DNA from: a virus | Lineage: Duplodnaviria > Heunggongvirae > Uroviricota > Caudoviricetes | Reading direction: 5' to 3' (one strand) | Virus record (IMG/VR): IMGVR_UViG_647533160_000003 | Length of the DNA stretch: 64,000 nt | In this document: piece after piece, positions 1 through 57,221 of the stretch | How positions within the stretch are numbered: the stretch's first letter is position 1 | Layout of the letters: each line of letters begins with the position of its first letter | Notes under the pieces: generated by a model | Seen by the model: only the letters and a program-made list of their open reading frames with translations | What the model was told of the DNA's origin: nothing | The model's database searches: none | Made by a program: the position numbers and the translations under genes

Positions 1-361
1 CATCATGAGTTGCACAATAAGTGGTTGCGTGATTAAGCCTCAATCCTCTGGTGTGCTTTTCTGCGATGCGGCTACACCGCTATACATCAGCCGTGATGAT
101 CTCATGACCGAAGAGACTGAAAGGGAAGTACTTTTTCACAATATGATAGGGGAGCGATTGTGTGGATGGGGCAGAAAAGTGCCATAATAAAAGCGGAATT
201 TTCTAACATAAAATTTGCATATTATTAGAGCACAAGGTAGATTTGAAGCATGGATGTCAAGTAAATCATACCTTGTTTTAATAAATCGACGCATACTCGT
301 AGCCTCTAAACCGACAAGGTCGCCGCTATGACATAAAGTTATTACCGGCTAAGGTGGAAAC

Positions 362-760
362 ATGCATACTGCACTTAACGCATCTCGTTCTATTCAGACG
401 ATAAGAGACTGTACCAAGATGATCGCATCGGTTCCGTTGCGGCATTGGAATGACTCGCTCCAAATTCGTGAAATGAACAAACCGGGTATGCTTAAGGATC
501 AGCGTTTCATCGTTAACCTTAAAAGTGACGTTGAAGAAGGCAAGTTTACCATCAAATTGTTTGCAGAAATGATGGTGCTCAACAATCGGTTACGTTTTCT
601 TGTTAAGCCAGAAAAACAGTTTCCCGATGTTGTGCGTTGTGAACAGGATGCTTTCTATGAGATTGAAAGCAAAATAGCTAAATTTATCAAAGATAAATAC
701 CGCGTAGATGTTAAAATAGCGAAACTGGATTCATCTACGGATATGCGGCTTGCGAACTAA
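362..760 (+). CDS. hypothetical protein
   Basis: 132-aa ORF; stop abuts ATG of next ORF (758-763); no recognisable motif. Confidence 0.45.
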   Translation: MHTALNASRSIQTIRDCTKMIASVPLRHWNDSLQIREMNKPGMLKDQRFIVNLKSDVEEGKFTIKLFAEMMVLNNRLRFLVKPEKQFPDVVRCEQDAFYEIESKIAKFIKDKYRVDVKIAKLDSSTDMRLAN

Positions 761-1537
761 ATGTCACCATCATTCATAGCAGAGTATTCAAAAGTTCTGT
801 CTGATTTCCCTGAATGTGAAGCAAGAGAGAAAATCAGAGTTGGCTACATGGTTAACTCTGATTTTTCTGTTTTACGGCTCACAGAATGGTCCTTGACGGG
901 ATCTAATTATGATTACTGTTTGACAGTATCATTTGTAGGCGACCCTGATGCAGATTGGCTTCAAGAACATGCAATGGATCTTGACGAGCAGGGGTATTCA
1001 GAAGCAGAGATAGTTCATAGTGTTCGTGAGTTAGTTGGTGATGAACAAGAAGATGATGACGGCATTCAGATTGCCAGGTTCGTCTACAAACGTTTCCAGT
1101 TTCGCTCACAAAAAGGCTCTCACCTTGGTGTCCAGATCAAAGGGGCATTTGTAACCCCTTCAAAGGAACAAAAGGGACTTGCTAGAAGAGTTTACAATTT
1201 CCTTCTCAATTGGCATGACCATGTGGTATGTGATGACCATCAGACGGTTTACGGTGCCAGAATTTGGGCGGTCGGTATGCTTCTGGTCGGGCGTGTCCAA
1301 ATCTATGACAATTTAAATAAAGAATTTATAGATGTCCTTGTTGAAGGTGGTATTGGGCAGAATGGCGTCAAACCGTGGGATGCGCTGCTATTGAACAGCG
1401 AGGCTCAGTTACGTCACTGGAACCCTATGGCTGTCAGCATAGACCCATCTAGTCAGATTCTCACCATCATCTCCAAAGAAGACCGCCACATTGAAGTGGG
1501 CGTTACAACATTTGATGCCAGGTCTACCAACCACTAA
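761..1537 (+). CDS. hypothetical protein
   Basis: 258-aa ORF with acidic stretch; followed by intrinsic terminator. Confidence 0.5.
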   Translation: MSPSFIAEYSKVLSDFPECEAREKIRVGYMVNSDFSVLRLTEWSLTGSNYDYCLTVSFVGDPDADWLQEHAMDLDEQGYSEAEIVHSVRELVGDEQEDDDGIQIARFVYKRFQFRSQKGSHLGVQIKGAFVTPSKEQKGLARRVYNFLLNWHDHVVCDDHQTVYGARIWAVGMLLVGRVQIYDNLNKEFIDVLVEGGIGQNGVKPWDALLLNSEAQLRHWNPMAVSIDPSSQILTIISKEDRHIEVGVTTFDARSTNH

Positions 1538-1544
1538 TTCCTAA

Positions 1545-1567
1545 ACCCGCTACGGCGGGTTTTTTGT
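1545..1567 (+). terminator. rho-independent terminator
   Basis: CCCGC-TACG-GCGGG hairpin followed by TTTTTTGTT. Confidence 0.6.
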
Positions 1568-1699
1568 TATTAAGTCCTTACCAAATCTATGTACCTATCA
1601 TTAAACCTTTACACCACAGCCGTAGGCATTTAGGCTATATCACATATAAGAAAACAAGTTGTTTCAGACGATAATTATATACGCAAAGGGAACTCTCCA

Positions 1700-2368
1700 A
1701 TGACCAAGATCTTTGTGGTTGGCGGCACAAAGGGCGGGCCTGGCAAATCCACCGTTGCCCAGCAAATTGCCGTTTGCCTGAAAGTCAAAAAGAAGAAGAA
1801 GGTTTATATCACCGATATAGATATTCAGCGCACGACAACGAGCTGGTGTGAAGACCGTCGACAGAACGAAGACCTTGAGCTGATTCCTTTTGCATACGTT
1901 CAGGATGACATCATTAAGCACCTAAAATCGCTTCAGGGTAGAGCTGAGTATGTAGTGGTAGATGCTGGTGGCTTCGACTCCGAAATTCAGCGACAAGCGA
2001 TGCTGATGGCTGACGTTATCATTATCCCGCTGCGTCCTAAGCGTCGTGATTTGAAATCTTTACGTGACATCGATCCTATTATCGACAATGTTCGCAATGT
2101 AAACGATAAAGTGAAGGTCCGCGCGGTCATGAACCAGTGCCCGGCTTTGCCATCACAAGTGTCTCGCATTCTGGCGGCTAAAGAGATTGTCGAGACGTTT
2201 GGCATCGAGTCTGCGCCTGTCAATCTATATAACCGCAACGTCTACGATGATGCGGAAGAGTCTGGTCGTTCTATCTTTGAAATGACCGGTAGCGAGCGCG
2301 ACAAAAAGGCGGAAGCCGAGTTTGAAGAATTTGTAGATTATCTGTTGAGTCTGGAGGAAGAAGAATAA
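1700..2368 (+). CDS. parA: ParA-family partition ATPase
   Basis: N-terminal deviant Walker A KIFVVGGTKGGPGKST; about 220 aa as in small type-Ib ParA; AAAACAAGTTGTTT box upstream. Confidence 0.85.
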   Translation: MTKIFVVGGTKGGPGKSTVAQQIAVCLKVKKKKKVYITDIDIQRTTTSWCEDRRQNEDLELIPFAYVQDDIIKHLKSLQGRAEYVVVDAGGFDSEIQRQAMLMADVIIIPLRPKRRDLKSLRDIDPIIDNVRNVNDKVKVRAVMNQCPALPSQVSRILAAKEIVETFGIESAPVNLYNRNVYDDAEESGRSIFEMTGSERDKKAEAEFEEFVDYLLSLEEEE

Positions 2369-2727
2369 TGTCCATGAAAATGGGTGACCTAGCAAAGCGC
2401 AAAGAGCCTGATGCACCGGCTAAGAACACAACTCCTTTGCGCCAACCAGTCAGACCACAGGGACGCCCGACTCGTGGCAAAGAGAAAATTAAAAGCCGCA
2501 CAATGTCACTGGAAGACGAATACTTCGAACTGCTGGAGATGATGAAGTTCATCCCTCGCTTCGAGAAATTCACCCGCTCTGATGTGATTCGTGCTGCTAT
2601 TTTCCATCTGGCAGAGAAGTCGCCGCAGGAAATCGAGGATATCGTGAAACTTAACGAGGCGATCACTGCTGCCGACGTCACGATGCGTACCGATGAAATC
2701 AAACGCGAGTTGATGAAGAAAGGTTAA
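2368..2727 (+). CDS. small partition partner protein (ParB/ParG-like), putative
   Basis: 119-aa ORF translationally coupled to parA by TAATG overlap; basic N-terminus; size fits type-Ib centromere-binding partners. Confidence 0.5.
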   Translation: MSMKMGDLAKRKEPDAPAKNTTPLRQPVRPQGRPTRGKEKIKSRTMSLEDEYFELLEMMKFIPRFEKFTRSDVIRAAIFHLAEKSPQEIEDIVKLNEAITAADVTMRTDEIKRELMKKG

Positions 2728-2732
2728 TTTTA

Positions 2733-3323
2733 TTGAGGTGCTGCTTGGCACCTCTTTCTATAGGTTCCCTAATGCTCTACAAATATATTGGAAGTGAAGA
2801 TTCGCAAAAAGTGTTACGTAACCTCAAACGGTTTGTAGAGGACGGCACTATCTCTGCTAGCGCACCTTCTTCATTCAACGACCCATCAGAGTTCAAAGTT
2901 TCGATAACGATGGGAGGTACAGAAGTGGAGCGCCGGAAACACTTTGAAGACAATGGATGTAAGGATTTTTCCTTTGAAGACTGGGATGCTGTAGCTCCTG
3001 AAGCTGCAAAATCGTTGGCTGTGGATTTGCGGAAAGAATCATTAGGGGCTTTTGGTGTGGTGTGCTTGTCACCAAACGAAGATAACATCTTGATGTGGTC
3101 ACATTACTCAGTGTCGCATAAAGGTTTCTGCATAGGCTTTGATGATGATTTTGTTACCTCTATTGAGGGGTATCACAGCTTTGATAATGTGAAATATATA
3201 CCTTCTGTTCCCGTGTTCGATGAAGTTACAGATGAGTTTAAGGTACTTTTTGATAAGCTCTTTTTCTACAAGCACGAATGCTGGAAATATGAGGAAGAAC
3301 AAAGGGTTATTACTAAAAAATAG
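2733..3323 (+). CDS. DUF2971-like protein (tentative), probably frameshifted
   Basis: N-terminal LYKYIGSED...FNDPSEF pattern; coding signal continues in another frame from the A6 run at 3317 to a stop at about 3490. Confidence 0.45.
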   Translation: MRCCLAPLSIGSLMLYKYIGSEDSQKVLRNLKRFVEDGTISASAPSSFNDPSEFKVSITMGGTEVERRKHFEDNGCKDFSFEDWDAVAPEAAKSLAVDLRKESLGAFGVVCLSPNEDNILMWSHYSVSHKGFCIGFDDDFVTSIEGYHSFDNVKYIPSVPVFDEVTDEFKVLFDKLFFYKHECWKYEEEQRVITKK

Positions 3324-3532
3324 GCGCTCAGGCATTTGATAAGAAATATATTAGAGAGATCATTCTTGGGTATAACGTTTCTCCTGAAGTAGAAGAATAT
3401 GCCCGGACACAGCTAGACACGAGCATCGAGGTTTACAAAATGAGTACACCTGATGATGGTTATCTTCTTGTCAAAGAAAAGCTGAAGTAGCTCCAGACTT
3501 TCCTCAAATGATTATGTTGGGCGCTTTTCTTA

Positions 3533-4729
3533 TTGAACTGGTTAGTGAGGCTAATAATGGATTTGTTCTCAACCAAAATAGCAAAAAACAAGCTGCACGA
3601 ATCTTTTAAACAGATTTATCAAGATAATACATATGCTCCAGTAAGAGAAGTGATACAGTCGTGGGGGCGTGGGTTACTGGAGCGTAGCGGTGAGCAGACT
3701 AAATTCGTTAAAGAGTTTCAGACAACCTTCAATTCCGCCTTATGGGAATTGTATCTGAACGAAATGTTTATTCGTCTCGATTATTCTGTCGACTACACAA
3801 AAGACAGTCCCGATTTCTGTGTTACTACACCGTCAGGCTACCAGTTTAACGTCGAAGCTGTGATATCAGATCGGCCACATAATCCACCTGCAGGTGCTCT
3901 TTTTAGCGAATCAAAATTCAAACATCAATCAACGCTAAAATTAATCGGAAAAATCAAAGACAAACATGATCTTTTTACAGGAGTTAATGGCAAAAAATTC
4001 CCGTACTCTACGATGTCTCATGTAGTTAATAAGCCGTTTGTTCTGGCGCTTGCACCCTTTGACTCCGATTTATCATTGTCTCAAAATAACACAATCATCA
4101 ATCGAGTGTTGTTTGGCATTGAGGAACCTACCACCAGAAATTTGGTGACTGGCAGCCAAACTAAAGTTACCTCAATCAAAAAGAATGAAGACGTTGAAAT
4201 TCCATTAGGTATATTTACTAACGACTCATATAAAGAAATAAGTGCGGTTATTTTCTCCACCACCGGCACTTTTGGAAAAGCCGTGGTTCAAAGCGGTATC
4301 GGTAGATATGTAAGGTCAACACGATATCGAGCCATTGATGTGAATGATTTCATCGCCAATGAAGGGATGAAAAACGAGGGAAAGCACACACAAAGGATAG
4401 GACCTGATCATTTCATCACTACATATCGGCATTTTTTAAATAACGAAGTCACTGGTGCGGATATTGTAGTTTGCCATTCCACTGCTCATGAAGAGACGCA
4501 CTTTGACGGCCTTCATATTTACTACAATCCTTTTGCGACAGTGCCACTGGACAGAAATATTTTCTTCCCCCCAGAGATAACTCATAATTTTTACGATATG
4601 GAAAAAGAACAGTCTGTTCAGAATCATCCTGATGGAGCGCTGGTATCTAGACAGGTTTTTGAACCAACTAGAGCACATTTTAGGTATATCATGAAACATT
4701 GGTTTCCAGGCTTTCTAAAAGATGTTTAA
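3533..4729 (+). CDS. hypothetical protein (accessory, lower GC)
   Basis: 398-aa ORF; no confident motif; likely start at Met 3557. Confidence 0.5.
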   Translation: MNWLVRLIMDLFSTKIAKNKLHESFKQIYQDNTYAPVREVIQSWGRGLLERSGEQTKFVKEFQTTFNSALWELYLNEMFIRLDYSVDYTKDSPDFCVTTPSGYQFNVEAVISDRPHNPPAGALFSESKFKHQSTLKLIGKIKDKHDLFTGVNGKKFPYSTMSHVVNKPFVLALAPFDSDLSLSQNNTIINRVLFGIEEPTTRNLVTGSQTKVTSIKKNEDVEIPLGIFTNDSYKEISAVIFSTTGTFGKAVVQSGIGRYVRSTRYRAIDVNDFIANEGMKNEGKHTQRIGPDHFITTYRHFLNNEVTGADIVVCHSTAHEETHFDGLHIYYNPFATVPLDRNIFFPPEITHNFYDMEKEQSVQNHPDGALVSRQVFEPTRAHFRYIMKHWFPGFLKDV

Positions 4730-4917
4730 GCATCCTGCTGGTTGAATTTGGAACCTGCTTCTGTATATAAATACTAAGTTACTTATTATTATTTATACGG
4801 AAGCAGGTCTTTTTCTATGCCAACTTCCCAGACACATTCCCTTCCGTTTCCACTTCCAAAAACTGCCACCAGTCGCTATCATCCGCTCATTGCAATAAGT
4901 AAGTAACTACCTATCAG

Positions 4918-5667
4918 GTGAGCCACATGAGCCAAATCTTTTTTGATACCATTGACAACGACCAGTACGACTTCATGACAGAGTGGAATACCGCTGTTAT
5001 GGACAAGTGGGTCGCTGAAAACATTGGTTTGTCGCGCTGCAAAGACGAGGCTGAACTCTTCGAGACGAAGTGGTTTGATTACCGCGATATGCATCCTCTC
5101 ATGGCCACCTGTCTGTTTACGGAGGCGTACAAACGTCAGTACTCAAATATCATGCTGACGCACGGTCGCGAACACTTTGAAACAGCTCCGTTCACCACCG
5201 GGTTAAAACGCCTGCCTTATCAGGAGTTGTCGACTGCCAATAAAACGTCGCTATGGAAAGCACGCCAGTTTGCTGATCGCTATTGCTGTTCATACGACTA
5301 CTTTATCTCCACGGTTCTTTCCGCAGCTGCACGGCGTCTGTGGGACAAGTTGCCGCGCCCACAGCATTTATGGCAGCCAGAACTGATTGAGATATTCGAA
5401 GAGAAATTATCCAGACGCGCAACAACCCGTCTGGATGACTCTCTGGTTAGCTTTAAGCATATGGGAGACATGCAGTTCAACCCGATTCAGGAAAGCTATT
5501 TTGAGTGGATTCTGGAGCGTTTGCGCATCATCCCCCGCAGCAAGCGCATACGCGCAATTTTCTCTGCTATCTGGCTAATGGAAATCGTTCCAGAGCGCCT
5601 TATTTCCGCCCACTTTCCAGAAGAACTGGAAGAAGCACGGCGGTTTATTGATCCCCTATCTAATTAA
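4918..5667 (+). CDS. hypothetical protein
   Basis: 249-aa ORF immediately upstream of helicase gene. Confidence 0.5.
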   Translation: MSHMSQIFFDTIDNDQYDFMTEWNTAVMDKWVAENIGLSRCKDEAELFETKWFDYRDMHPLMATCLFTEAYKRQYSNIMLTHGREHFETAPFTTGLKRLPYQELSTANKTSLWKARQFADRYCCSYDYFISTVLSAAARRLWDKLPRPQHLWQPELIEIFEEKLSRRATTRLDDSLVSFKHMGDMQFNPIQESYFEWILERLRIIPRSKRIRAIFSAIWLMEIVPERLISAHFPEELEEARRFIDPLSN

Positions 5668-5710
5668 CTAATACTAGAAAACAATTTGTTTAAAAAACAA
5701 AGGAAAGCAC

Positions 5711-7051
5711 ATGACCGAACTTTGCCATACAGGACGCGGGCTGTCCGAAGAGTTTGATGAAGATTTCCAGAACAGACTGACGGCATATTTTTGTCGTGAT
5801 CACGAGTTTCTTACTCGTGCGGGAGATCTGGTTGTGCCTAGCCAATTTGCCAATGCGGCCAATGCCATATTGGTTAATATGGTTTCGGGCTATTACCGTA
5901 TGTACAAGAGCGCGCCTTCTTCATCTGCGATTCTGGATATGCTTAAGCGCGCGAAACGCGATAAGACCATCCGTGAGGAACTCTTCCCGGATGTTGTTGC
6001 TGCGTTTAAGCGCATCCTTGCAGAAAAATTGTCTGATACCTCGTACATGGTTGACCAGGTATCCACATTCGCAAAAAGTGTAGCGTTTGATGATGCTCTG
6101 ATTAAAGCTGCTGAACTGAAAGAGAAGGGCGACTTTCAGGGGGCGATGGCAATCATGGCCAAGGTTCAGCAGATAGGCTCGAACGAAGCGACCGGAATCT
6201 ATGACTACTACACCTCCGCAAGTGAGCGATTGAAAGCGCGTGAATATGAGGCTTCAGAGGAGTATGTGCCAAACAGCATTACAACTGGACTCCCTCTGCT
6301 CGATAGGTTGCTGTACCAAAAAGGCTGGGCGAAGCGTGAAATGGTGCTCTTCATGGGGTTCGCTAAATCCGGCAAATCGACCGCAATGGGTGAGTTTTCC
6401 ATAAACGCAACGCTTGCTGGCTACAATGTTCTGTATCTCTCGCTGGAGGTTCACACCACCATTTTATCCGACCGTTTTGATGCAAGATTGTCGGAGACAG
6501 AAATGTCCAAGCTGGTGGAACGGCGCGATGAGGTTCATCGTAAGTTGGCAGAGTTGGGAGCCACGAAGGGGATTGGTAGTTTGTGGGTGGTTGAGCGTCC
6601 GTCAGGAAGTATGTCACCGGCAGATCTGGACCGTATGCTTAACAGCATGAAAGCCAACGGCATGGTGCCTGACATGGTTGTTGTCGACTACGCAGATTTG
6701 ATGCGTGCCAGTTATGACCTTCGTGATGATCGCGCCAACATTCGTAGTATCTACACCGATTTACGTGCTCTTTATGACAAGCATAACGTTGCTGGGATCA
6801 CGGCATCGCAGACAAACCGTGAAGGTGGCGCGTCAGAAGTTGCCACAATGATGCACGCTGCCGACAACATCGAAAAAGTACGTATTGCTGACCTGGTAAT
6901 AACGATCAACAAAACCGAAGAAGAAGAAGCGAAAGGAGAGGCTCGTCTCTACTTTGCTGGTTCACGTAACCAGCAGGGAGGGATCAGCATTCGCGTTAAA
7001 CAAAACCTCGAACAAATGCGCTTCATTGAGCGAATCTTAGACGTTACCTAA
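5711..7051 (+). CDS. DnaB-like replicative DNA helicase
   Basis: Walker A GFAKSGKST and Walker B-like VVVDYADLM in C-terminal RecA-like domain; AAAACAATTTGTTT box upstream. Confidence 0.75.
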   Translation: MTELCHTGRGLSEEFDEDFQNRLTAYFCRDHEFLTRAGDLVVPSQFANAANAILVNMVSGYYRMYKSAPSSSAILDMLKRAKRDKTIREELFPDVVAAFKRILAEKLSDTSYMVDQVSTFAKSVAFDDALIKAAELKEKGDFQGAMAIMAKVQQIGSNEATGIYDYYTSASERLKAREYEASEEYVPNSITTGLPLLDRLLYQKGWAKREMVLFMGFAKSGKSTAMGEFSINATLAGYNVLYLSLEVHTTILSDRFDARLSETEMSKLVERRDEVHRKLAELGATKGIGSLWVVERPSGSMSPADLDRMLNSMKANGMVPDMVVVDYADLMRASYDLRDDRANIRSIYTDLRALYDKHNVAGITASQTNREGGASEVATMMHAADNIEKVRIADLVITINKTEEEEAKGEARLYFAGSRNQQGGISIRVKQNLEQMRFIERILDVT

Positions 7052-7060
7052 AAAATAAGC

Positions 7061-8314
7061 GTGGAGAACGCCTCCACGCTTGATTCATTGGTGAAACAAC
7101 TTTTCTTTTGCCAAACCACAAAAGAAAAACACATGAGCCTTTATGTTATATCAACATTTAGGTTGGTCACAATATTGCCTGTTAAAAGTGGAATTATCGT
7201 GAGCGAGCTGAAAGAGCTAATTACCGAATTAGATTTTGAACAATGGTTGGACACTGAAGGTATCATTTATCGGCGCGGAGGCGTGAGTGCTCGCGGTCGT
7301 GAAGTGAATATCAAGGAGTGTCCGGTATGCGGCAGCTCCAACTGGAAGGTATATTTCAATCTGACCAGTGGTGTGGGTAAATGTTTCGCTGGCGACCATC
7401 CTGAAGAAATACAATTTAATAAGCTGGTGTTCCTCAAGCACTACAGCGGTAAATCACGGCGACAGTTCGAAGAATATGTGCAGAACGCCCTTCTTTCTCA
7501 GGGATGGACACCAAAGAAAGAAGAGATAGTGCTTGCAAGCACAGTCGAGTTAGAGGGACCAGTTGCCCTCCCTCGTCATTACGAACTGCCTATAGATGGC
7601 CGTCTTCCAGACTATCTGGTTGAACGAAACATATCGCCTGAAATGGCAAAGTATTTTGACCTACGATACTGCGTCGAAGGCAAACACGCCTATGTAGATC
7701 CGTATACAGATCAGGTAAAAGGACAGATATTCGATATGCGAATACTCATACCGGTTTACGATCTGGATGGGGTAATGAAGACATTTCAGGGACGAGACAT
7801 TACCGGTACAGCAGAACGTCGCTACCTCTTTCCTATGCAGCTTCCAGCTTCAGGTAAGTTTCTCTACAACGGCCATAATGCAGTCGGCAAACAGACGGTA
7901 GTTGTCTGTGAGGGGGCGTTCGATGTTATGGGGGTCAAACGAGCTATTTTTGACGAAGAAACATTACGTGATTACGTGGAACCAATAGGAACGTTCGGGA
8001 TGCATCTATCTGGCAACACCACTCAGGATGCAGAAGATCAGCTGGGCGCGTTCCTGACGCTCAAGGCGCGTGGATTACGTAATGTGATCATGATGTGGGA
8101 TAGTGAAAAGCAAGCTATACGCAACACTATGGCCGCAGCTAGGCGACTCACAAGTATTGGTCTTAATGTCAAAGTTGCGTGTTTGGGCGAGGAAGGACTC
8201 GACCCCGGCGATGCGACACCGGGGCAGATTATCAAAGCCTACTATTGCGCAAAACCTTATTCACGACAGCTTGAACTCTTAAGCAAGGTGAAAGGCATTG
8301 CAGCACTAGTTTGA
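7061..8314 (+). CDS. DNA primase (zinc-finger plus TOPRIM)
   Basis: CPVCGSS...KCFAGDH zinc ribbon and TOPRIM-like VVVCEGAFDVMG; true start may be internal (7133 or 7200). Confidence 0.75.
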   Translation: MENASTLDSLVKQLFFCQTTKEKHMSLYVISTFRLVTILPVKSGIIVSELKELITELDFEQWLDTEGIIYRRGGVSARGREVNIKECPVCGSSNWKVYFNLTSGVGKCFAGDHPEEIQFNKLVFLKHYSGKSRRQFEEYVQNALLSQGWTPKKEEIVLASTVELEGPVALPRHYELPIDGRLPDYLVERNISPEMAKYFDLRYCVEGKHAYVDPYTDQVKGQIFDMRILIPVYDLDGVMKTFQGRDITGTAERRYLFPMQLPASGKFLYNGHNAVGKQTVVVCEGAFDVMGVKRAIFDEETLRDYVEPIGTFGMHLSGNTTQDAEDQLGAFLTLKARGLRNVIMMWDSEKQAIRNTMAAARRLTSIGLNVKVACLGEEGLDPGDATPGQIIKAYYCAKPYSRQLELLSKVKGIAALV

Positions 8315-9451
8315 ACCAGTATTAGTCACATACACATTGACCGAAAATGATTTAACTTCTGTATTGAAGTTGTCAGTCATTACTGCGAGGTAGGCATTCT
8401 TGGTATCTCTGAATTGCTTCAGGATGATTTGAACGTTGTCGGTGCAAACAAACGAGGTAGCCAGATTGCCTCCTTTCTCTGAAAAATCCTTCAGGAAGGT
8501 GCAGTCAACTTTGCCATCATTAGCGGTGAAGGTAGCATCATCACCCTGCCAGGTAAATGTAGCGTTAACGCCCTTATCAATGGATTTAGCAATAAGTCGC
8601 TGGGTGGCGGATTTTGTTTTGGCTTTGGAAGCCGGCGCTCGATATTTGCCGCTTTCTTTCAGTTCTGCAATGTAATCGCAGCCTCTTTTTTCTCCTTTAT
8701 CGCAAGCAGTCTGATAAAGGTCGGCTGCTTTTTTATAGTCCTTTTTTACACCTTCCCCATTCTCATACATAATGCCAAGATTGGTTATGGCGTCGGCGTT
8801 TCCAAGTTCCGCTGCCTTTTTATACCACTTAACTGCTTCTGCATCATTGCGTTTAACGCCTAACCCATCATCGTATAGTATTCCTAATCCTATCATAGCT
8901 TCTGAACTGCCTTGGTCTGCCGCCTTTTTGTAATAAGTAAAAGCCTTTTTATAATTCTTTTTAACGCCTTTACCATATTGGTAATACGCCCCAAGAACTG
9001 AAGTTGCTTTAACATACCCGGCATCAGAGGCTAGTTTGAAGTATTTAATGGCGAGTGCATGATCTACTTTACCAAGCATCCCCTTTTGATAAATAGCACC
9101 AAGATTGTTGTAGGCTCTACCTTCACGAGCATCCCCCGCAAGTTTGTAGTACTCAACAGCTTTATTTAGGTCTTTATCTACACCCTCGCCAAATGTGTAC
9201 ATAACTCCAAGTGCATAATATGCTACTTTATCTCCCTTTTCTGCAGCTAGATCAATCCACTTCTTGGCCTCAACTACATCCTTATCAAAACCATTGACAC
9301 CATCAAAATAATTTGTACCTAACTCACTTTGTGCTGCGGTATCCCCTGCGGTAGCGGCTTCTATCAGCGTTTGTTTATTGTCTGCGTTAACGAATCCAGA
9401 GTTAAAAAGCAAAGTTAATGCCAGCAACGATGAAGATTTTATGTATTTCAT
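8306..9451 (-). CDS. secreted Sel1-repeat (TPR-like) protein
   Basis: Signal peptide MKYIKSSSLLALTLLFNSGFVNA; tandem Sel1-like repeats (A..Y.LG.MY..G.GV.KD...A..WYKKAA); opposite strand to backbone. Confidence 0.75.
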   Translation of the reverse strand: MKYIKSSSLLALTLLFNSGFVNADNKQTLIEAATAGDTAAQSELGTNYFDGVNGFDKDVVEAKKWIDLAAEKGDKVAYYALGVMYTFGEGVDKDLNKAVEYYKLAGDAREGRAYNNLGAIYQKGMLGKVDHALAIKYFKLASDAGYVKATSVLGAYYQYGKGVKKNYKKAFTYYKKAADQGSSEAMIGLGILYDDGLGVKRNDAEAVKWYKKAAELGNADAITNLGIMYENGEGVKKDYKKAADLYQTACDKGEKRGCDYIAELKESGKYRAPASKAKTKSATQRLIAKSIDKGVNATFTWQGDDATFTANDGKVDCTFLKDFSEKGGNLATSFVCTDNVQIILKQFRDTKNAYLAVMTDNFNTEVKSFSVNVYVTNTGSN

Positions 9452-9684
9452 GTTTTTTTGTTCTGTTGATATAGGATGAACAGTTTAGACGCGGCAAGCG
9501 TCCAGTGTGCGAAAAGGGTACTTAAATTTAGTTAATCTGTCAGCTTTGATAATTTAATTTATGAACTGTAAAGTTGATGTGATATTAATCACCGATGGAA
9601 ATAATGAGCTATGGAATTATTGTGGCACGGCTCGTGTTTTGGTTAACTAATACCTACGATAAATATAAATAAAGGGAAGTCAAA

Positions 9685-10098
9685 ATGAGCAAAAAGAAGT
9701 TGATTTTAACAGGTGCTTTATTGTCTTTGTTTGCATTAGTTGGGTGTAAGCCTACAGACGAGAAGGCTATTACTCTGGGCCAACAGGCAATTGCGGATGA
9801 TATGAAAGATCCCACGTCGGTGATGTTTAGGAAAGATAAGTTTGTCAGGACTGATCATGATGATGGGAGTGTGACAGGCTTTGTGTGTGGTGAATTAAAC
9901 GCCAAAAATGGCTTTGGTGCATACGTGGGCTATCACTCATATGTTGTTGAACTCGAAATGAAGCCAAAGGGCATGTTTTCAAAAGGGGTGGTATACAAAA
10001 TCCTATCGAAGTCGTTGGCACCTAATGATCCTCATGATTTACAGCGTTATAAGCAGGTCTACAGAAAGATGTGCAACAGTGAGGCTGTAGCTCATTAA
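9685..10098 (+). CDS. lipoprotein, function unknown
   Basis: Signal peptide with lipobox LFALVGC; 137 aa. Confidence 0.55.
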   Translation: MSKKKLILTGALLSLFALVGCKPTDEKAITLGQQAIADDMKDPTSVMFRKDKFVRTDHDDGSVTGFVCGELNAKNGFGAYVGYHSYVVELEMKPKGMFSKGVVYKILSKSLAPNDPHDLQRYKQVYRKMCNSEAVAH

Positions 10099-11544: not shown

Positions 11545-12863
11545 AAAAGTTGATCGCACTTAAGCATAAGCTGGACGAAATGAAAGCTATGGGAACCAAT
11601 GCAAAAAAAGAGGCATTGGCCAACATGGATGACTTTGAACAAAGCATGGTTTCATTGATGCTCAACCCTTTCATCCGTTTTGGGGTAAAGAAATACAAAG
11701 TGGCAGAGCCGCTTAGTGAGTCCGTCCCAAGTGACGAAAAAGCCATTGATGTACTGAATAAGCTGGCCTCTCGCGAGCTGACGGGGAACGCAGCAATAGC
11801 TGCTGTTGAGTCTATCGTGGCGTCAATGTGCGCCGATGGGCAGGACGTCTTCCGTCGTTTCCTCTTAAAAGATCCGAAAGCTGGCGTTGGGATTAGCCTA
11901 TGCAACAAGGTTTTTGAAAATCCCATTCCGAAATTCGAGGTGCAGCTGGCGTCACCGTATAAAGAAAAAGGCGACAAATACCCCTTCAAGCCAAACCCTA
12001 AAGCAAAATGGCCGATGATTGGCAGCCTTAAGCTCGATGGTTTGCGAGTAATTTGCGAGGTTATTGTTGACGAAGAAGAGGTTAACTTCCTTTCTCGTAC
12101 TGGTAATCCAATCACGTCTCTCGATCACCTAAAGCCAGCCATGCTCGAATTAGGCAAACTTTCAGGCCACAAACACATCTTCTTCGATGGTGAAGGCACA
12201 GCCGGTTCATTTAACCAGTCCGTATCTGCATTGCGCAAAAAGAACGTGCAGGCAATTGGCGCTATTTATCATGTTTTCGACTTCTTCCTACCGGAATGGC
12301 GAGCACAGGCTAAATCCAAAGAGTATGCAAAGACAGGTATGAAGCTGAAAGAGCGCCTGGCTATGCTCGTGGCGTTGTTCAAAAACGATCGCAGTGAAGG
12401 CTACGCACAAGACATTCACCTGCATCCGTTCTACATCATCCATAGCCACGAAGACTTCATCGAACGCTTCATGAAACGCCTGGACGATAACGAAGAAGGG
12501 GAGATGGGCAAAGATCCGAACTCTGTTTACGAGTTTAAACGTACCCGCAGCTGGTGGAAGTTAAAAGACGAAGATTCAGAAGATGGTGAAATTATCGATT
12601 TTGAGCCGGGCGACCCGGACTCTGGTTTTGCCAACACGCTTGGGAAAATTGTTATTCGTCTTGAAAACGGCGTCATCGTTCGTGCGAGCGGCATTAAGCA
12701 TAAATATCTGGACGAGATCTGGAACAACAAAGAGAAGTACCGTGGTCGTATTGTCGAGGTTCATTGTCACGAGAAAACACCTGATGGCAGCTTACGCCAC
12801 CCACGACTGAAATGGCCGCGTTGCTTACGCGATACCGAAGATCGAATCGGAGATAAAGAATGA
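11541..12863 (+). CDS. ATP-dependent DNA ligase
   Basis: Adenylation motif I KLDGLR (IGSLKLDGLRVICEV); 440 aa. Confidence 0.8.
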   Translation: MKKLIALKHKLDEMKAMGTNAKKEALANMDDFEQSMVSLMLNPFIRFGVKKYKVAEPLSESVPSDEKAIDVLNKLASRELTGNAAIAAVESIVASMCADGQDVFRRFLLKDPKAGVGISLCNKVFENPIPKFEVQLASPYKEKGDKYPFKPNPKAKWPMIGSLKLDGLRVICEVIVDEEEVNFLSRTGNPITSLDHLKPAMLELGKLSGHKHIFFDGEGTAGSFNQSVSALRKKNVQAIGAIYHVFDFFLPEWRAQAKSKEYAKTGMKLKERLAMLVALFKNDRSEGYAQDIHLHPFYIIHSHEDFIERFMKRLDDNEEGEMGKDPNSVYEFKRTRSWWKLKDEDSEDGEIIDFEPGDPDSGFANTLGKIVIRLENGVIVRASGIKHKYLDEIWNNKEKYRGRIVEVHCHEKTPDGSLRHPRLKWPRCLRDTEDRIGDKE

Positions 12864-13075
12864 TCGTATTAAGTAAACGGGAGAAAGAAACGCTTCATGA
12901 AATAAGTAAGTGGCCGGAGTTCCCTGAGTACTGGAAGCCTAAAACGCGAGCTAAGTTAGAGCGTTTAGGGTTGGTTGCAAACGTTTCTGAAACGTGGCGC
13001 TCGGCCAACTACCAGTTAACTGATAAAGGGAAATTATTGCTACAGCAATTAGTAGAATCAGGAGCCTTTAAATGA
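12860..13075 (+). CDS. hypothetical protein
   Basis: 71-aa ORF overlapping ligase stop. Confidence 0.4.
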   Translation: MIVLSKREKETLHEISKWPEFPEYWKPKTRAKLERLGLVANVSETWRSANYQLTDKGKLLLQQLVESGAFK

Positions 13076-14288: not shown

Positions 14289-14363
14289 GATGGTGTAGCT
14301 CAGCGGTAGAGCAGTTGGCTGTTAACCAACTGGTCGGTGGTTCGAATCCACCCACCATCGCCA
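14289..14363 (+). tRNA. tRNA-Asn (anticodon GTT)
   Basis: Cloverleaf by eye: acceptor GATGGTG/CACCATC, T-arm GGTGG-TTCGAAT-CCACC, anticodon loop CTGTTAA, 3' CCA. Confidence 0.8.
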
Positions 14364-14368
14364 ATTTA

Positions 14369-14455
14369 GGGGAGTTAGTCCGTAGAGGTAGCGGGACAGA
14401 CTGTAAATCTACTGTCATTGCGACTCGGGTGGTTCGACTCCATCACTCCCCACCA
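14369..14455 (+). tRNA. tRNA-Tyr-like (anticodon GTA), class II, atypical anticodon stem
   Basis: Acceptor GGGGAGT/ACTCCCC, loop CTGTAAA, long variable arm, CCA; outer two anticodon-stem pairs are A-C mismatches. Confidence 0.55.
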
Positions 14456-14459
14456 AATT

Positions 14460-14535
14460 GCCGGTTTAGCTCAGTTGGTAGAGCGCCTGCCTTGTAAGCA
14501 GGATGTCAGCGGTTCGAGTCCGTTAACCGGCACCA
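14460..14535 (+). tRNA. tRNA-Thr (anticodon TGT)
   Basis: Acceptor GCCGGTT/AACCGGC, D-arm GCTC-AGTTGGTAG-AGC, anticodon stem CCTGC/GCAGG with loop CTTGTAA, CCA. Confidence 0.85.
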
Positions 14536-14759
14536 ATACAACGATAAGATCATTACGGTTAATCGTCGTTCATGTGCACAATGACTGGTCGAAAGGTAGT
14601 GATCTTACCGTTGTGGTGGATTCGCAGACTGATGCGATAGCTTTCTTGGATGTTAGGGAAATGCGGCCGCAAATCTTCCCTTTCGCGAGCGGTGATCGTC
14701 CGTAGTCCTAATTGGCTGCACCGTATGCCGGAGATTCAGTACCGGCCACCACAACGGCC

Positions 14760-14846
14760 GGAGAGTAGGGAGCATGGTGCTCAAGCGGTCTTGAAAATCG
14801 TCCCATTGTGCAAACGATGATGGTTCGATTCCATTACTCTCCGCCA
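14760..14846 (+). tRNA. tRNA-Ser (anticodon TGA), class II
   Basis: Acceptor GGAGAGT/ACTCTCC, anticodon loop CTTGAAA with G-U-containing stem, long variable arm, T-loop TTCGATT, CCA. Confidence 0.65.
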
Positions 14847-17084: not shown

Positions 17085-17373
17085 TTTACACCTTGTGGAA
17101 AGCCAGTTTAGTTCTGTAAATAGTATCACACGACAGGCGGCTATTCTTCTATCAATAAATGATAGGTAAGCACTTACTTTTTACGCACGTTAACTGTATA
17201 GTTCTTTCGGATACTCACTTGAAAGGACTCAATATGGGAAATAAATGTAAACATGCGCGTCGCGCATCTCGTCAGGTGCAGAAGTCAAATCCATACATTC
17301 ACGAGCACTACCACCTCAGCTCTTTCACTAACCGCTACACGTTCCCCAGCGAAGCGCATAACGAGGCAAAGCA

Positions 17374-17786: not shown

Positions 17787-18411
17787 NNNNNNNNNNNNNN
17801 NNNNNNNNNNNNNNNNNNNNNNNNNNNNNNNNNNNNNNNNNNNNNNNNNNNNNNNNNNNNNNNNNNNNNNNNNNNNNNNNNNNNNNNNNNNNNNNNNNNN
17901 NNNNNNNNNNNNNNNNNNNNNNNNNNNNNNNNNNNNNNNNNNNNNNNNNNNNNNNNNNNNNNNNNNNNNNNNNNNNNNNNNNNNNNNNNNNNNNNNNNNN
18001 NNNNNNNNNNNNNNNNNNNNNNNNNNNNNNNNNNNNNNNNNNNNNNNNNNNNNNNNNNNNNNNNNNNNNNNNNNNNNNNNNNNNNNNNNNNNNNNNNNNN
18101 NNNNNNNNNNNNNNNNNNNNNNNNNNNNNNNNNNNNNNNNNNNNNNNNNNNNNNNNNNNNNNNNNNNNNNNNNNNNNNNNNNNNNNNNNNNNNNNNNNNN
18201 NNNNNNNNNNNNNNNNNNNNNNNNNNNNNNNNNNNNNNNNNNNNNNNNNNNNNNNNNNNNNNNNNNNNNNNNNNNNNNNNNNNNNNNNNNNNNNNNNNNN
18301 NNNNNNNNNNNNNNNNNNNNNNNNNNNNNNNNNNNNNNNNNNNNNNNNNNNNNNNNNNNNNNNNNNNNNNNNNNNNNNNNNNNNNNNNNNNNNNNNNNNN
18401 NNNNNNNNNNN
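17787..18411. other. assembly gap (625 N)
   Basis: Uninterrupted run of n. Confidence 0.99.
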
Positions 18412-19449: not shown

Positions 19450-20553
19450 ATGAAAAATAGCTTTGACAGAGCACGCGCTGCGGAGAACACCTCAAAAGAG
19501 GCGATTGAGTATCTCGAAAGAGCATCTCAAATGCAGGCCGTTATGATCTCCCAGGTCAGCAATGACATGAGATTCTCGGACGCATTCATGTTATTCACTC
19601 GCTTATCTCTGCTGATAACAAGACGTCGGCCAGAGATCGCTGTTCATTGTATTTTGATACATGTTTTGCCGCACATTGCCGATGTAAAAGTAAGTGATAT
19701 TAATAGGTTCATGGTGAACCAACTGGTCAACCCACTAATACTGGATGGCAAAATTGTTATGGGTCGCCGCGTTTTCTCTCTGATGAAGCAGTTCCTCAGC
19801 TGGTGCGCCTTCCAGGGGATGATCGACGTGTCACCGTTAAACGATATGTCACTTAACAAAGTTGCCGGTGGCGCAAAGCCCACACCTCGCGAGCGGAAGC
19901 TGACCGACGCAGAGGTATGGGTGTTCTGGAATATATGGGACTACTTCAATGTGTGTGCTGGTACAAAATGGGCGGCCAGGCTATGTCTTGTATCCGCAAG
20001 ACGACCTGACGAAGTACTGCGGGCTAAAAAAAGTGAGTTCAATCTTAAGCGTGGGGTTTGGAATCAAGGCAAGAGGAACAAATCTGCCCGTGAGCATTCT
20101 CTGCCTTTAAGCTCATTAATGCGCACATGTATTGAAGAGTTGTTCGAATATGGTAAAGACAGCCAGTGGCTCGTGCCTTCGAATAAAAAAATCGGGAAAG
20201 ACCTTCCTATGTCTAAAGTGGCAATAGCCCAGGCATTACGTCGTATTCTGGAACGACCAGAACTGATGGAGCTTGAGCCATTTACACCCCGAGATTTGCG
20301 CCGTACTGCGCGTAGTTACTTCCCAGCATTAGGCATAAGCCAGGAGGTATCACGTAAAATCATGAACCACAGTCTTGAGGGGATAGATCGGGTCTACGAC
20401 CGGCACGATTATATGGACGAGATGCGAGACGCCTTAGAAAGTTTCTCGACGTACATCGCATCAATCGTAGAGCAACCGGATTTAGACGAAATTGACCACA
20501 AATTTAAGGGAGATCGTCTATCAACAGAGCTTATTCGTGTAAATTTTTCATAG
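19450..20553 (+). CDS. tyrosine recombinase/integrase, apparently lacking N-terminal arm-binding domain
   Basis: Catalytic-domain residues in order: R (FNVCAGTKWAARLCLVSARRPDE), H-x-x-R (RDLRRTARSY), NHS, C-terminal DRVYDRHDY; 367 aa. Confidence 0.7.
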   Translation: MKNSFDRARAAENTSKEAIEYLERASQMQAVMISQVSNDMRFSDAFMLFTRLSLLITRRRPEIAVHCILIHVLPHIADVKVSDINRFMVNQLVNPLILDGKIVMGRRVFSLMKQFLSWCAFQGMIDVSPLNDMSLNKVAGGAKPTPRERKLTDAEVWVFWNIWDYFNVCAGTKWAARLCLVSARRPDEVLRAKKSEFNLKRGVWNQGKRNKSAREHSLPLSSLMRTCIEELFEYGKDSQWLVPSNKKIGKDLPMSKVAIAQALRRILERPELMELEPFTPRDLRRTARSYFPALGISQEVSRKIMNHSLEGIDRVYDRHDYMDEMRDALESFSTYIASIVEQPDLDEIDHKFKGDRLSTELIRVNFS

Positions 20554-20940
20554 AGACTTTATGGCCTCAACAACCTTTTGTGATGCGCCTTTCTCTTTAC
20601 CGAATCGCTCGTTATATGCAGCAAGAACCTGTTTTTCGTCCTCGTTAAGAGGAGCAGTGCCTTCTTTGTATAAAAATGCTGCGAGTTCGGGTTGGCGTTC
20701 TTCCAGCACCATCATCATAAGACGACTTGGCTCAATACCCAGTGCCAGCGCCAGCGGACGAACCTTATCGATAGGCAAAGGAATTTTGCCGCTTTTAATT
20801 AAAGAAAGGTTGTTGGCGTTTTTATACCCAATTGTTTTGGCTATCTGGGCCTGGCTCATAGGTGAGGATTCAATCAACCCTGCGATAAAAGCAGCGTAGC
20901 GACTTTCTATAAATTCAATCTTGTTATCAGACATGGTCAC
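20548..20940 (-). CDS. HTH (XRE/Cro-CI-like) DNA-binding regulator
   Basis: Helix-turn-helix MSQAQIAKTIGYKNANNLSLIKSGK; convergent with integrase; palindrome motif copies in the next 170 bp. Confidence 0.6.
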   Translation of the reverse strand: MTMSDNKIEFIESRYAAFIAGLIESSPMSQAQIAKTIGYKNANNLSLIKSGKIPLPIDKVRPLALALGIEPSRLMMMVLEERQPELAAFLYKEGTAPLNEDEKQVLAAYNERFGKEKGASQKVVEAIKSL

Positions 20941-21185
20941 AACCTTTGCGCGTTCAATTCTCTCTGGTAAGTGCTTACCGATATTACATCAAAGGTTAGG
21001 GTTGTAAAGCTATTATCATTTTTTTCGATAGGCACTTAAAAGACCGGTTAAAGGCCATTGCACGGAGAAAAATTAGCCCAAAATAGGTAAGAAAAGTAAC
21101 TTGCATATGATATGAATGTATTCAGTATTGATACAAATTTTAGTAGTATTCCTTACCATAGTATAAGTTAGAATGGATTGATTGA

Positions 21186-21398: not shown

Positions 21399-21496
21399 CC
21401 CCTCTTCTCCCTGCGCGAATGGCTTAGTTCCCTGTTCGCGCAGTGCTACATTAAACACACTAGTAAATAATTTGTTTTCATAACAAAGGATTAGCC

Positions 21497-23605: not shown

Positions 23606-23700
23606 TTAGAATAGCCTTAATGATAAGTAATCACTTACGATATTTGATGGTATATTTATATAAGAAGTTGAAAGCTCATTAGAAAACAAAGGAAAAACGC

Positions 23701-34757: not shown

Positions 34758-34783
34758 AGGCGTCCAGTTGGACGCCTTTTTTA
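34758..34783 (+). terminator. rho-independent terminator
   Basis: AGGCGTCC-AGTT-GGACGCCT hairpin plus TTTTTTA. Confidence 0.7.
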
Positions 34784-34832
34784 TCGCAATTATCTTATTA
34801 AGAAAACAATTTGTTTGAAAGGATAAGAAAAC

Positions 34833-43791: not shown

Positions 43792-43864
43792 TTTTATTGA
43801 TAGGTAAGTGCTTATCTATTAACATGGGCCACTATATTTAGTGGCCCTCTTTATTTGGTGATAC

Positions 43865-46180: not shown

Positions 46181-46285
46181 CATATGGTGGGGTATAACCC
46201 CACCTTCTCTTTGATTTGTAAGCCTTGTTTAAACAAATAAGATAACAACTTGTTTAAACACATCAAAAAGCAAAAGGAAAAACAC

Positions 46286-47428
46286 ATGTCATATTCAACG
46301 TTCCGTTTGGGTGCTAATGATGCAACCAAAGAGCCTATGTTCCTCGGACAATCTGTCAACGTGGCACGTTACGATCAGCAAAAATACCGTGATTTTGAAA
46401 AGTTGATTGAACGTCAATTGTCTTTCTTCTGGCGGCCGGAAGAAGTTGATATTTCGAGCGATCGTATCGACTTCAACACGAAGCTGCGGGACCACGAACG
46501 TCACATTTTTCTGAGCAATCTCCGTTATCAAACGTTACTCGACTCAGTTCAGGGACGTAGCCCAAATGCAACGCTGCTGCCGCTTATCTCTATTCCTGAA
46601 CTGGAAACGTGGGTTGAAACATGGTCTTTCTCTGAGACTATCCATAGCCGCAGCTACACCCACATTATTCGTGGCATGGTGGACGATCCGAGCATTGTTT
46701 TTGACGGTATTGTTACGGATGAAGAAATCATCAACCGAGCGATCAGTATCTCTGCTGAATATGACAGGCTTTATGGGATGACCTGCGAGCGCCAGTCGTT
46801 AGGTGAGAAAGAGTTTGAACGTCTGTACGTAAATGAATATGGCTGGGAGCCATACCCTTTGCATCGTCAGCTTTTCCGCACGTTGGTGTCCATTAATGCG
46901 CTTGAGGCGATCCGTTTCTATGTAAGTTTTGCATGTACGTTTGCCTTTGGCGAACGGAAGTTGCTTGAGGGTAACACCAAAATTATGCGCTTTATTGCCC
47001 GTGATGAAGCTCTGCATTGCGAAGGAACTGAACGCATGATCCGCTTCATGCGTACCGGTCGCGAAGGTTTATTGTGGAAAGAGATTGCTGCTGATGAAGA
47101 AAACGTCATTTACGACACCATGAAATCAGTCGCCGAACAAGAAATGAACTGGGCAGACTATCTCTTCAAAGACGGTTCGATGATTGGTTTAAACGCGGAT
47201 ATTCTGAAGACCTATGTAAAATACCGAACCAATCTGGCTATGAATCGTCTTGGCCTGAAGGCTTTATTTCCAGAAGTTACCACTGATCCGCTGGTCTGGA
47301 TGAACAAGTGGTTGTTAACCGACACACTGCAAATTGCACCACAAGAGGCAGAGCAAAGCACATATCTGGTAGGTCAGATCGATTCTACCGTGGATAAGGC
47401 TTCTCTAAGCCAGTTTGCAGACCTGTAA
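46286..47428 (+). CDS. nrdB: ribonucleotide reductase small subunit (class Ia)
   Basis: Close to E. coli NrdB over most of its length ([43 protein letters not shown]); start at Met 46286, ORF-track start 46250 is an upstream extension. Confidence 0.9.
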
Positions 47429-51663: not shown

Positions 51664-51672
51664 GGAGTTCTG

Positions 51673-52230: not shown

Positions 52231-52235
52231 AACAA

Positions 52236-56405: not shown

Positions 56406-56498
56406 CGGTTGTTAGTGCATATGCATTGACCGTCTTTGCGTAAGCAATTTATGTAACCAGAAAACAATTTGTTTTGACAAATAGCAAAAGGAAAACAC

Positions 56499-57112: not shown

Positions 57113-57221
57113 TTGACCGAAATAGAGAGTTTGCACCTTTACGTTTAGCTTTCTCCCCTTTTATGCCACATCACAATAAAGCCAATAAGAAAACAACTTG
57201 TTTAAGCATTAGGAAAAACAC

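Follow-up and report, generated by a model that had tools for sequence, protein, structure and literature searches.

What does a short palindromic box do when it recurs before scattered genes of a phage that also lives as a plasmid, and what might bind it? We addressed this question for the box AAAACAA-n-TTGTTT in the IMG/VR virus record IMGVR_UViG_647533160_000003 (Caudoviricetes), of which one stretch of 64,000 nucleotides, hereafter the window, was analysed. The window is 99.9% identical to the Escherichia coli plasmid pLH09-a-C (NZ_CP100547.1) and shares ~96% identity with Cyrano, which E. coli LF82 carries as a phage-plasmid, and ~80% with Salmonella phage SSU5; judged by these matches, it is an E. 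coli phage-plasmid of the SSU5/pHCM2 type. Its genes for partition, replication, recombination and nucleotide metabolism and its small early genes lie on the plus strand nearly throughout, and more than 750 related plasmid records come from Escherichia, Klebsiella, Enterobacter, Salmonella, Citrobacter and other genera. An earlier note on this DNA had read the box broadly, either as a promoter element that several genes share or as the site of a regulator encoded by the element, and its placement, its retention at orthologous genes, its specificity to one family and the silence of the downstream genes in a lysogen all support that reading. We suggest, with a probability of about 0.5, that a repressor encoded by the element uses the box as its operator.

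Results

Occurrence of the box in the window

Exact AAAACAANTTGTTT has seven matches at six loci (1651, 5678, 34803, 56461, 57190 and 57907), the perfect palindrome at 56461 being read on the minus strand too. Dinucleotide shuffles give an expectation of 0.01. When one mismatch was allowed, the matches rose to 14 against 0.24 expected, adding the sites at 46242 (nrdB) and 21464. With a 22-nucleotide weight matrix made from these sites, eight plus-strand sites score 23-34, well clear of the rest of the window, which scores at most 16 and consists of reverse-strand echoes of the same eight sites or of background. All eight sites are intergenic and oriented like the downstream gene:

1645..1666, plus strand: box 1, core 1651-1664, TATAAG-AAAACAAGTTGTTT-CA, ending 35 nucleotides 5' of the parA ATG (1700)
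5672..5693, plus strand: box 2, core 5678-5691, TACTAG-AAAACAATTTGTTT-AA, ending 19 nucleotides 5' of the DnaB-like helicase ATG (5711)
21458..21479, plus strand: box 3, degenerate, core 21464-21477, CACTAG-TAAATAATTTGTTT-TC, score 23.2, ending 19 nucleotides 5' of the cobT-like ATG (21497)
34797..34818, plus strand: box 4, core 34803-34816, ATTAAG-AAAACAATTTGTTT-GA, ending 16 nucleotides 5' of the ATG (34833) of a hypothetical gene of 141 amino acids
46236..46257, plus strand: box 5, core 46242-46255, AATAAG-ATAACAACTTGTTT-AA, one mismatch, ending 30 nucleotides 5' of the nrdB ATG (46286)
46225-46236: extra palindrome TTGTTTAAACAA by box 5
56455..56476, plus strand: box 6, core 56461-56474, AACCAG-AAAACAATTTGTTT-TG, perfect 7+7 palindrome, ending 24 nucleotides 5' of the TerB/TciA-like ATG (56499)
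57184..57205, plus strand: box 7, core 57190-57203, AATAAG-AAAACAACTTGTTT-AA, ending 18 nucleotides 5' of the ATG (57222) of a hypothetical gene of 187 amino acids
57901..57922, plus strand: box 8, core 57907-57920, AATAAG-AAAACAATTTGTTT-AA, ending 12 nucleotides 5' of the DUF4942 gene ATG (57933)

The earlier note had listed seven sites, all of which are real and lie where it placed them; it overlooked the degenerate eighth, before the cobT-like gene. Its range of 15-45 nucleotides to the start codon comes near the measured 12-35 nucleotides from the box end and 26-49 nucleotides from the box start, its naming of parA, helicase and nrdB as downstream genes agrees with the annotation, and the palindrome that it saw beside the nrdB box is present. 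The extended consensus is (A/T)A(T/C)(A/T)AG-AAAACAA-n-TTGTTT-(A), the left half of which, AGAAAACAA, occurs nine times on the plus strand of the window and never on the minus strand.

Conservation of the box across relatives

Exact copies of AAACAAnTTGTTT number 9 in pLH09-a-C, 9 in Cyrano, 11 in SSU5 and 15 in the Klebsiella element pFF979_1, which has 67% nucleotide identity in the helicase region; there are none in Aeromonas caviae pNY4622-IMP, a distant relative with the same gene order (shuffle expectation, at most 0.2 in each genome). The matrix finds ~15-20 sites per enterobacterial genome, among them two in front of the small-terminase gene, terS, and a dense run preceding small orphan genes past the window end. 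In a de novo census of all 6+6 palindromes, AAACAA-n-TTGTTT came first in both the E. coli and the Klebsiella elements. Furthermore, a scan of 2.9 million viral contigs with AAGAAAACAANTTGTTTA returned 120 loci, 103 of them SSU5-like by blastn and the other 17 with one copy each. By these counts the box appears essentially confined to the enterobacterial branch of the SSU5-like family.

For an orthologue comparison, the E. coli box genes were located in relatives by coding sequence and the orthologous 200-nucleotide upstream regions were scored. A strong box was found at 9 of 11 such regions in SSU5 and at 4 of 5 in the Klebsiella relative, a score that ~1% of random 200-nucleotide windows reach. 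In matched pairs the 16-nucleotide core is 88-90% identical against flanks of 54-63% (E. coli and SSU5) and 31-41%, near random (E. coli and Klebsiella), a measure that is biased by site selection. The box is retained, with diverged flanks, across relatives of 67-80% identity. It stands upstream of parA in every relative checked, and also at six of six further loci from bacterial genome contigs. Orthologues of box 2 (helicase) and box 8 (DUF4942) are present in both SSU5 and the Klebsiella relative, box 5 (nrdB) is conserved in SSU5, and the SSU5 orthologue of the degenerate box 3 (cobT-like) carries a full box, CATCAGAAAACAAATTGTTTAA. When 18 distinct orthologous upstream regions were compared, no block was conserved better than box 6, a comparison that is only partly informative, the IMG/VR loci having been collected by exact box match.

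It would be tempting to read this invariance, maintained while most element proteins diverge to 34-78% identity, as the mark of a host DNA-binding protein conserved in Enterobacteriaceae, and the lack of the box in the Aeromonas relative would suit such a protein too. However, confinement of the motif in viral contigs to SSU5-like DNA speaks against a host factor, and no paper was found for the exact 13-mers. Also, we know of no E. coli operator consensus that matches the box: the sites of IHF, Fis, PhoP and ArcA do not fit, and the KdgR site, AAACA-n-TGTTT, has a spacing unlike that of the box. We consider a host-factor site very improbable.

Site anatomy and promoter geometry

In an alignment of 44 sites from three genomes, the AG, the AAAACAA and the TTGTTT are near-invariant, while the central base varies (the central three in some copies). 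A hexamer 12 bases 5' of the box ends in T in 38 of the 44 sites and is GATAAT-like (GATAAT, TATTAT, CACAAT or similar) at the exact offset in 14, or in 20 when a shift of one nucleotide either way is allowed. Sixteen bases farther upstream the sequence is T-rich (TTTTCT, TTTTAT, TTTGTA) and is followed by GCCTTT, with no -35 consensus. Terminator-like hairpins were found by a scan 40-100 nucleotides 5' of boxes 1, 5, 7 and 8, and a fifth is visible 5' of box 4:

1543..1562, plus strand: terminator-like hairpin and T-run, box 1
34759-34776: terminator hairpin and T-run, box 4
46186-46204: terminator hairpin, box 5
57085-57106: terminator hairpin, box 7
57172-57177: -10-like hexamer CACAAT, box 7
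57809-57824: terminator hairpin, box 8
57889-57894: -10-like hexamer AATAAT, box 8

Since terminator hairpins stand just 5' of at least five window boxes, transcription must restart in these short spacers. A consensus scan for canonical sigma-70 promoters (TTGACA-like -35, spacer of 16-18 base pairs, TATAAT-like -10) found none at the box sites in 1-10000 or 45000-64000, and a canonical sigma-70 promoter is therefore unsupported at the scanned boxes. If the hexamer serves as a -10 element, we infer that transcription starts on the A of AAnAAG and that the centre of the dyad falls near +14.

In six cases across the genomes, a second box in the opposite orientation (…AAACAAnTTGTTTTCTGCCTTT…) is centred exactly 51 base pairs upstream, at about -38, so that the two flank the -10-like hexamer; in four further cases, before terS and before one Klebsiella gene, boxes are paired 25 base pairs apart. 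Fixed arms around a free centre, the use of both orientations and the exact spacing of the pairs agree with cooperative binding of DNA by a symmetric, oligomeric protein. Moreover, the symmetry of the dyad, its predicted place near +14 and the reversed copies at -38 would speak for a regulator site rather than for a part of the promoter itself. At the small-terminase gene the two boxes 25 base pairs apart are followed by a GC hairpin with a T-run and then by the ribosome site (pLH09-a-C 66600-66680; Cyrano 50-135; SSU5 49-134), a layout of promoter or operator and then terminator that is reminiscent of late-operon antitermination control.

The recurrent arrangement could also mean that the box has no dedicated binder at all, but is the conserved end of a terminator-promoter-leader cassette homogenised by recombination. 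A precedent exists in the PeSL cassettes of the T4-type phages RB49 and phi1, in which a terminator stem-loop, a promoter and a Shine-Dalgarno sequence precede many small orphan genes (PMC2839356). Here, too, a hairpin, a promoter-like segment and a Shine-Dalgarno sequence occur at at least five of the eight window sites, and the same order of hairpin, promoter-like segment, box and ribosome site is seen before many small orphan genes. Unlike PeSL cassettes, however, which have consensus sigma-70 -35 and -10 elements and no dyad after the -10, the sites described here have a weak promoter part, and conservation is concentrated in a 13-nucleotide dyad, the remainder being near random between lineages. 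The box also heads core genes (parA, helicase, nrdB, terS), and a homogenised cassette would leave the dyad symmetry and the exact 51- and 25-base-pair pairing unexplained. We give this possibility very little credence.

A box ending just 12-35 nucleotides 5' of a start codon might instead act in the RNA leader, on translation or stability, either as the target of a translational repressor such as the FljA-like protein that the element encodes or as an unstructured A/C-rich enhancer. Two further points are suggestive of a role in RNA: the left half resembles a recurrent leader, AACAAAGGAAAnCACATG, and the E. coli, SSU5 and Klebsiella elements have all conserved the FljA-like protein. However, eight leaders folded no better than shuffles (-0.7 to -5.2 kcal/mol, z-scores -1.1 to +1.0), the box hairpin itself was predicted in one leader only, at -0.7 kcal/mol, and no hairpin was stable or shared. 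The natural variants (AAATAA, TTATTT, TTGGTT, AAACTA) show no compensatory changes, and Rfam at the gathering threshold finds tRNAs only in the window and no family at the box. On the shuffle-level folding and the Rfam null, an RNA hairpin or riboswitch-like leader was rejected. In addition, copies at -38 of the inferred promoters, or before terminators, fall outside the same leader context, and the FljA-like protein is just 34% identical in Klebsiella while the box is unchanged, for which it was rejected as a binder as well. An RNA-level element of any kind therefore seems improbable to us.

Two side observations concern these leaders. The translation start context A(A/C)AAAGGAAA(A/G)CACATG is near-identical at many genes (for example 5697-5713, 46270-46288, 56483-56501, 57206-57224 and 23681-23703), and the A/C-rich stretch within it looks like the left box half. 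The FljA homologue of the family (Pfam Flag1_repress, E = 3e-81), related to the repressor of phase-1 flagellin, is SSU5_121 (L005 46897-47343) and lies at 100780-101301 in Cyrano; in Salmonella, FljA is a post-transcriptional repressor.

Expression in a lysogen

In published RNA sequencing of LF82, where Cyrano (96% identical to the window) resides as a plasmid prophage, the normalised counts have a median of 9.8 (PMC9928086, S1 Table). For the genes headed by sites that we mapped in Cyrano, the lysogen counts are as follows:

terS: 7.1
cobT-like gene: 7.8
CYRAN_58: 5.7
nrdB: 12.9
CYRAN_85: 7.0
CYRAN_87: 7.1
CYRAN_101: 7.5
CYRAN_105: 12.8
CYRAN_106: 12.2
CYRAN_110: 6.7
helicase: 21.1
CYRAN_111: 25.5
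parA operon (parA, its RHH-like neighbour, third gene): 49.8, 89.1, 54.6

Box-headed genes other than the parA operon are thus silent (5.7-25.5), and the parA operon is the only clearly expressed one. Genes with strong expression in the lysogen, among them toxin-antitoxin pairs, repA, a helix-turn-helix (HTH) repressor (95.8) and an S24 peptidase (148), have no box. Because box-headed genes are silent and strongly expressed genes are box-free, the box promoters can be taken as lytic-cycle promoters, the parA operon excepted. That the parA operon is on while the other box genes are off is the pattern predicted by negative autoregulation.

Candidate binding proteins

Genes that bear on the identity of the binder, in order of position, are:

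1700..2368, plus strand: parA, 222 amino acids, annotated as a small Walker-type partition ATPase
2368..2727, plus strand: ribbon-helix-helix (RHH)-like gene after parA, 119 amino acids, leading candidate
12860..13075, plus strand: 71 amino acids, "putative transcriptional regulator" in Cyrano, minor rival, conserved in SSU5 and the Klebsiella relative
20548..20940, minus strand: HTH (Xre-like) putative repressor beside the integrase, third-ranked candidate
outside the window, just upstream of the terS box pair: winged-helix protein, 88 amino acids, second-ranked candidate

After a conserved N-terminal peptide, MGDLAKR, and a variable linker, the 2368-2727 protein has the basic arm RPQGRPTRGK, followed by IKSRTMSLEDE, a putative beta-strand, and by FTRSDVIRAAI, which would be the second helix. 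Across homologues of 49-94% identity the putative DNA-reading segments are invariant: the basic arm and the second helix do not change, and the strand follows I(K/Q)SRTMS(L/I)EDE. Distant relatives, found when 1.84 billion proteins were searched with a profile, keep I(K/R)SRTxSxEDE … (S/T)R(S/T)DVxRAA and a GGLGK-like N-terminus. Type Ib partition loci pair a small Walker ParA with a small RHH protein that binds the centromere and has a flexible N-terminal tail; here, ParA is followed by a protein with an RHH-like pattern, and Pfam RHH_1 matches over the same segment below threshold, in two relatives only (E = 0.005 and 0.11). The product looks like the ribbon-helix-helix protein that binds the centromere and partners ParA in type Ib systems, and its N-terminal peptide would be the one that stimulates ParA. 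Its operon, alone among those headed by a box, is on in the lysogen. Every locus that encodes it has a box upstream of parA, and the Aeromonas relative, which has no box, carries a different small protein after parA. We tentatively propose it as the box binder, at odds somewhat short of even. The gene is annotated as "RelE/ParE putative toxin" in phage Cyrano and as "hypothetical" in RefSeq.

Conservation of the 88-amino-acid protein is 75-100%, its recognition helix is invariant, and its model is a minimal MarR-type winged helix (predicted local distance difference test, pLDDT, 82; Foldseek E ~2e-4 to 2pg4, MepR and MarR). Like those of the RHH-like protein, its homologues were found only in SSU5-like contigs. 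Being silent in the lysogen (7.8), it could serve only as an activator or late regulator.

This protein is the candidate factor if the box is a positive promoter element, in which the box, the AAnAAG start region and the T-rich GCCTTT segment would be recognised by a phage activator or sigma-like factor that enables host RNA polymerase; the box-headed genes would then form a middle or delayed-early class, off in lysogens for want of the factor. In support of this idea, the scanned boxes have no canonical sigma-70 promoter, the fixed geometry from -10-like hexamer to box resembles a composite promoter, the box-headed genes are off in the lysogen, and the winged-helix protein offers a conserved and silent candidate. 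However, a centre near +14 is unusual for an activator, the reversed copies at -38 and the 25-base-pair pairs before terS are ill-suited to a single activation geometry, lysogens express the parA operon despite its box, and the annotations of the relatives list no sigma, MotA or AsiA-like protein. We regard a positive element as unlikely, and infer repression rather than activation.

Among the other candidates, the HTH repressor (20548-20940) was downgraded as the box binder since its own promoter is box-free and SSU5 lacks the gene yet keeps the boxes. The 71-amino-acid protein has no Pfam match and a poor single-sequence model (pLDDT 64). A second RHH-like protein, downstream of the UvsW helicase (CYRAN_117), was rejected, as its predicted DNA-facing residues differ between E. 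coli, SSU5 and Klebsiella while the box is unchanged.

A second palindrome family

The control region of the HTH repressor, which lacks the AAACAA box, has three GGTAAG/CTTACC elements, including GGTAAGTGCTTACC at 20966-20979. They belong to a second family, (ATA)GGTAAG-nn-CTTACC(TAT), unrelated to the box, with 10 matches in the window at up to two mismatches against 1.5 expected. Its sites include:

1569-1582
17165-17178
20966-20979
43803-43816
53353-53366
55567-55580
59621-59634

These sites usually lie directly after the stop codon of the preceding gene, and one perfect copy stands 1 nucleotide past a TTTACA-16-TAATAT promoter reading into the HTH repressor gene. SSU5 has seven copies, the Klebsiella relative has the variant TAAGTA-nn-TACTTA, and the Aeromonas relative has ~30 copies of CAGTAA-nnnn-TTACTG before early and late genes. 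The family is likely the operator set of a CI-like repressor.

SSU5 lacks the integrase and the adjoining HTH repressor (window 19450-20940), both of which are present in the E. coli, Klebsiella and Aeromonas relatives, and despite this keeps both palindrome families. This absence is consistent with a recent loss, which would leave SSU5 effectively lytic.

Other features of the window and its relatives

A low-GC segment at 16-20 kb holds 625 masked bases (N, 17787-18411) and an AbiGi-like gene on the minus strand. Four tRNA genes are clustered at 14289-14846 (Asn-GTT, Tyr-GTA, Thr-TGT and Ser-TGA), the Tyr tRNA scoring barely over the Rfam threshold. Just past the window end, chromosomal-looking metG and apbC/mrp genes lie among the small early genes (pLH09-a-C 80630-83921; Cyrano 89738-93029), and apbC has a lysogen count of 91.7. 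Aeromonas pNY4622-IMP has tandem 17-base-pair repeats CCCCGCAAATGAGGATT (at least five copies) and 22-base-pair repeats GAGATCAGTTTGTCCAC… (3-4 copies) at 107755-107860 and 113400-113480, iteron-like arrays without counterpart in the window.

Discussion

We propose that the box acts as an operator in the following way. Its two inverted heptads, AAAACAA and nTTGTTT, would lie directly past the transcription start in a family of ~15-20 weak promoters without a -35 element, whose genes serve replication, nucleotide metabolism and packaging or belong to the small early class. A dimeric or tetrameric protein encoded by the element would bind the box from +8 to +20, and the bound +14 site, sometimes together with a second one at -38, 51 base pairs off, would stop RNA polymerase from initiating, leaving the lytic-cycle units silent during the plasmid life of the element. 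The likeliest binder would be the RHH-like partner of ParA, which would autoregulate the parA operon through box 1 and at the same time act as a global silencer, in the manner of omega of pSM19035 and KorB of RK2.

Several points weigh against this proposal. The -10-like hexamers are weak at several window sites (GGCTAT, CGCAAT, CTTGTT), and the placement of the box at +14 is therefore a model. The left half AGAAAACAA occurs without the right half at some Klebsiella promoters and in one ribosome-site leader, and may have a second role. Silence in the lysogen would be expected equally if box promoters need a phage activator, and the MarR-like protein of 88 amino acids is another conserved small DNA-binding candidate with an invariant recognition helix. 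As for the leading candidate, the window protein has no Pfam match and no PDB sequence match, and its hhalign comparison with ParG (1P94) was null (probability 0.1). Type Ib centromeres are normally repeat arrays upstream of parA, whereas the relatives have a single box there, no array, and repeats dispersed over the genome.

The proposed arrangement shares features with several known systems. ParG and omega are autorepressors that bind short repeats; omega binds 7-base-pair units, which may be inverted, and the box can be read as two inverted heptads. As in the omega/ParB system of pSM19035 (inc18), a small RHH-like protein would be paired with a Walker-type partition ATPase, and omega both autoregulates its partition operon and represses other promoters of its element. 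Its sites, however, are arrays of 7-10 heptads (WATCACW) at three promoters, while here there are ~15-20 dispersed two-heptad sites of another sequence, at lytic-phage promoters. KorB of the IncP plasmid RK2 is a partition protein that serves as global repressor through OB, a 13-base-pair palindrome with an odd central base (TTTAGCSGCTAAA) that recurs at about a dozen scattered promoters. KorB, by contrast, is a ParB-type HTH protein and CTPase and not a putative RHH-like protein, and OB positions vary where the boxes stand at fixed offsets. A ParB-family binder, as a KorB/OB-type regulon has, does not fit what was found: the ParB-like genes of the element are silent in the lysogen (5.0 and 9.5), and the candidate is not ParB-like.

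The C1 repressor of P1 offers a parallel in a plasmid prophage, where one repressor has many scattered operators next to lytic genes, including a helicase gene. Unlike the box, the operators of C1 are 17-mers without symmetry (ATTGCTCTAATAAATTT), to which a monomer binds; the sequences are unrelated and no homology was detected, and in the element studied here the GGTAAG-nn-CTTACC family is the better fit for a CI-like repressor. Two further systems, for which we found no relationship in sequence or protein, are mechanistic analogies only. CopG of pMV158 binds as an RHH tetramer to a 13-base-pair pseudo-symmetric element, and lac O1, centred at +11, illustrates how a dyad just past the start blocks initiation and how an auxiliary operator helps by looping. 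A dispersed palindromic operator is thus a well-known kind of element, and the present instance and its regulon appear to be undescribed: in the full-text literature we found nothing on the box sequence, on SSU5/pHCM2 regulation or on the choice between plasmid and lytic life.

We speculate further that the partition adaptor doubles as the master silencer of the lytic genes, the ~20 dispersed boxes being at once a distributed centromere and a set of operators; this is possible, though we lean against it. If so, one protein would couple plasmid segregation and copy number with the decision to lyse. Runaway replication after induction, for example, would multiply the boxes, titrate the protein and derepress the replication, early and packaging genes. 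Such a silencer circuit would run alongside a separate CI-like repressor acting on GGTAAG-type palindromes.

SSU5/pHCM2-type phage-plasmids are very common and are described in the literature as carriers of resistance genes. In them the box would define a regulon of ~15-20 transcription units, and its sequence could serve as a simple marker of the family's enterobacterial branch. Moreover, it gives a handle on the control of plasmid and lytic life: a 13-base-pair site to mutate, a short list of binders and a testable link between partition and silencing. The coupling of partition to the silencing of lytic genes, if confirmed, would be the interesting part.

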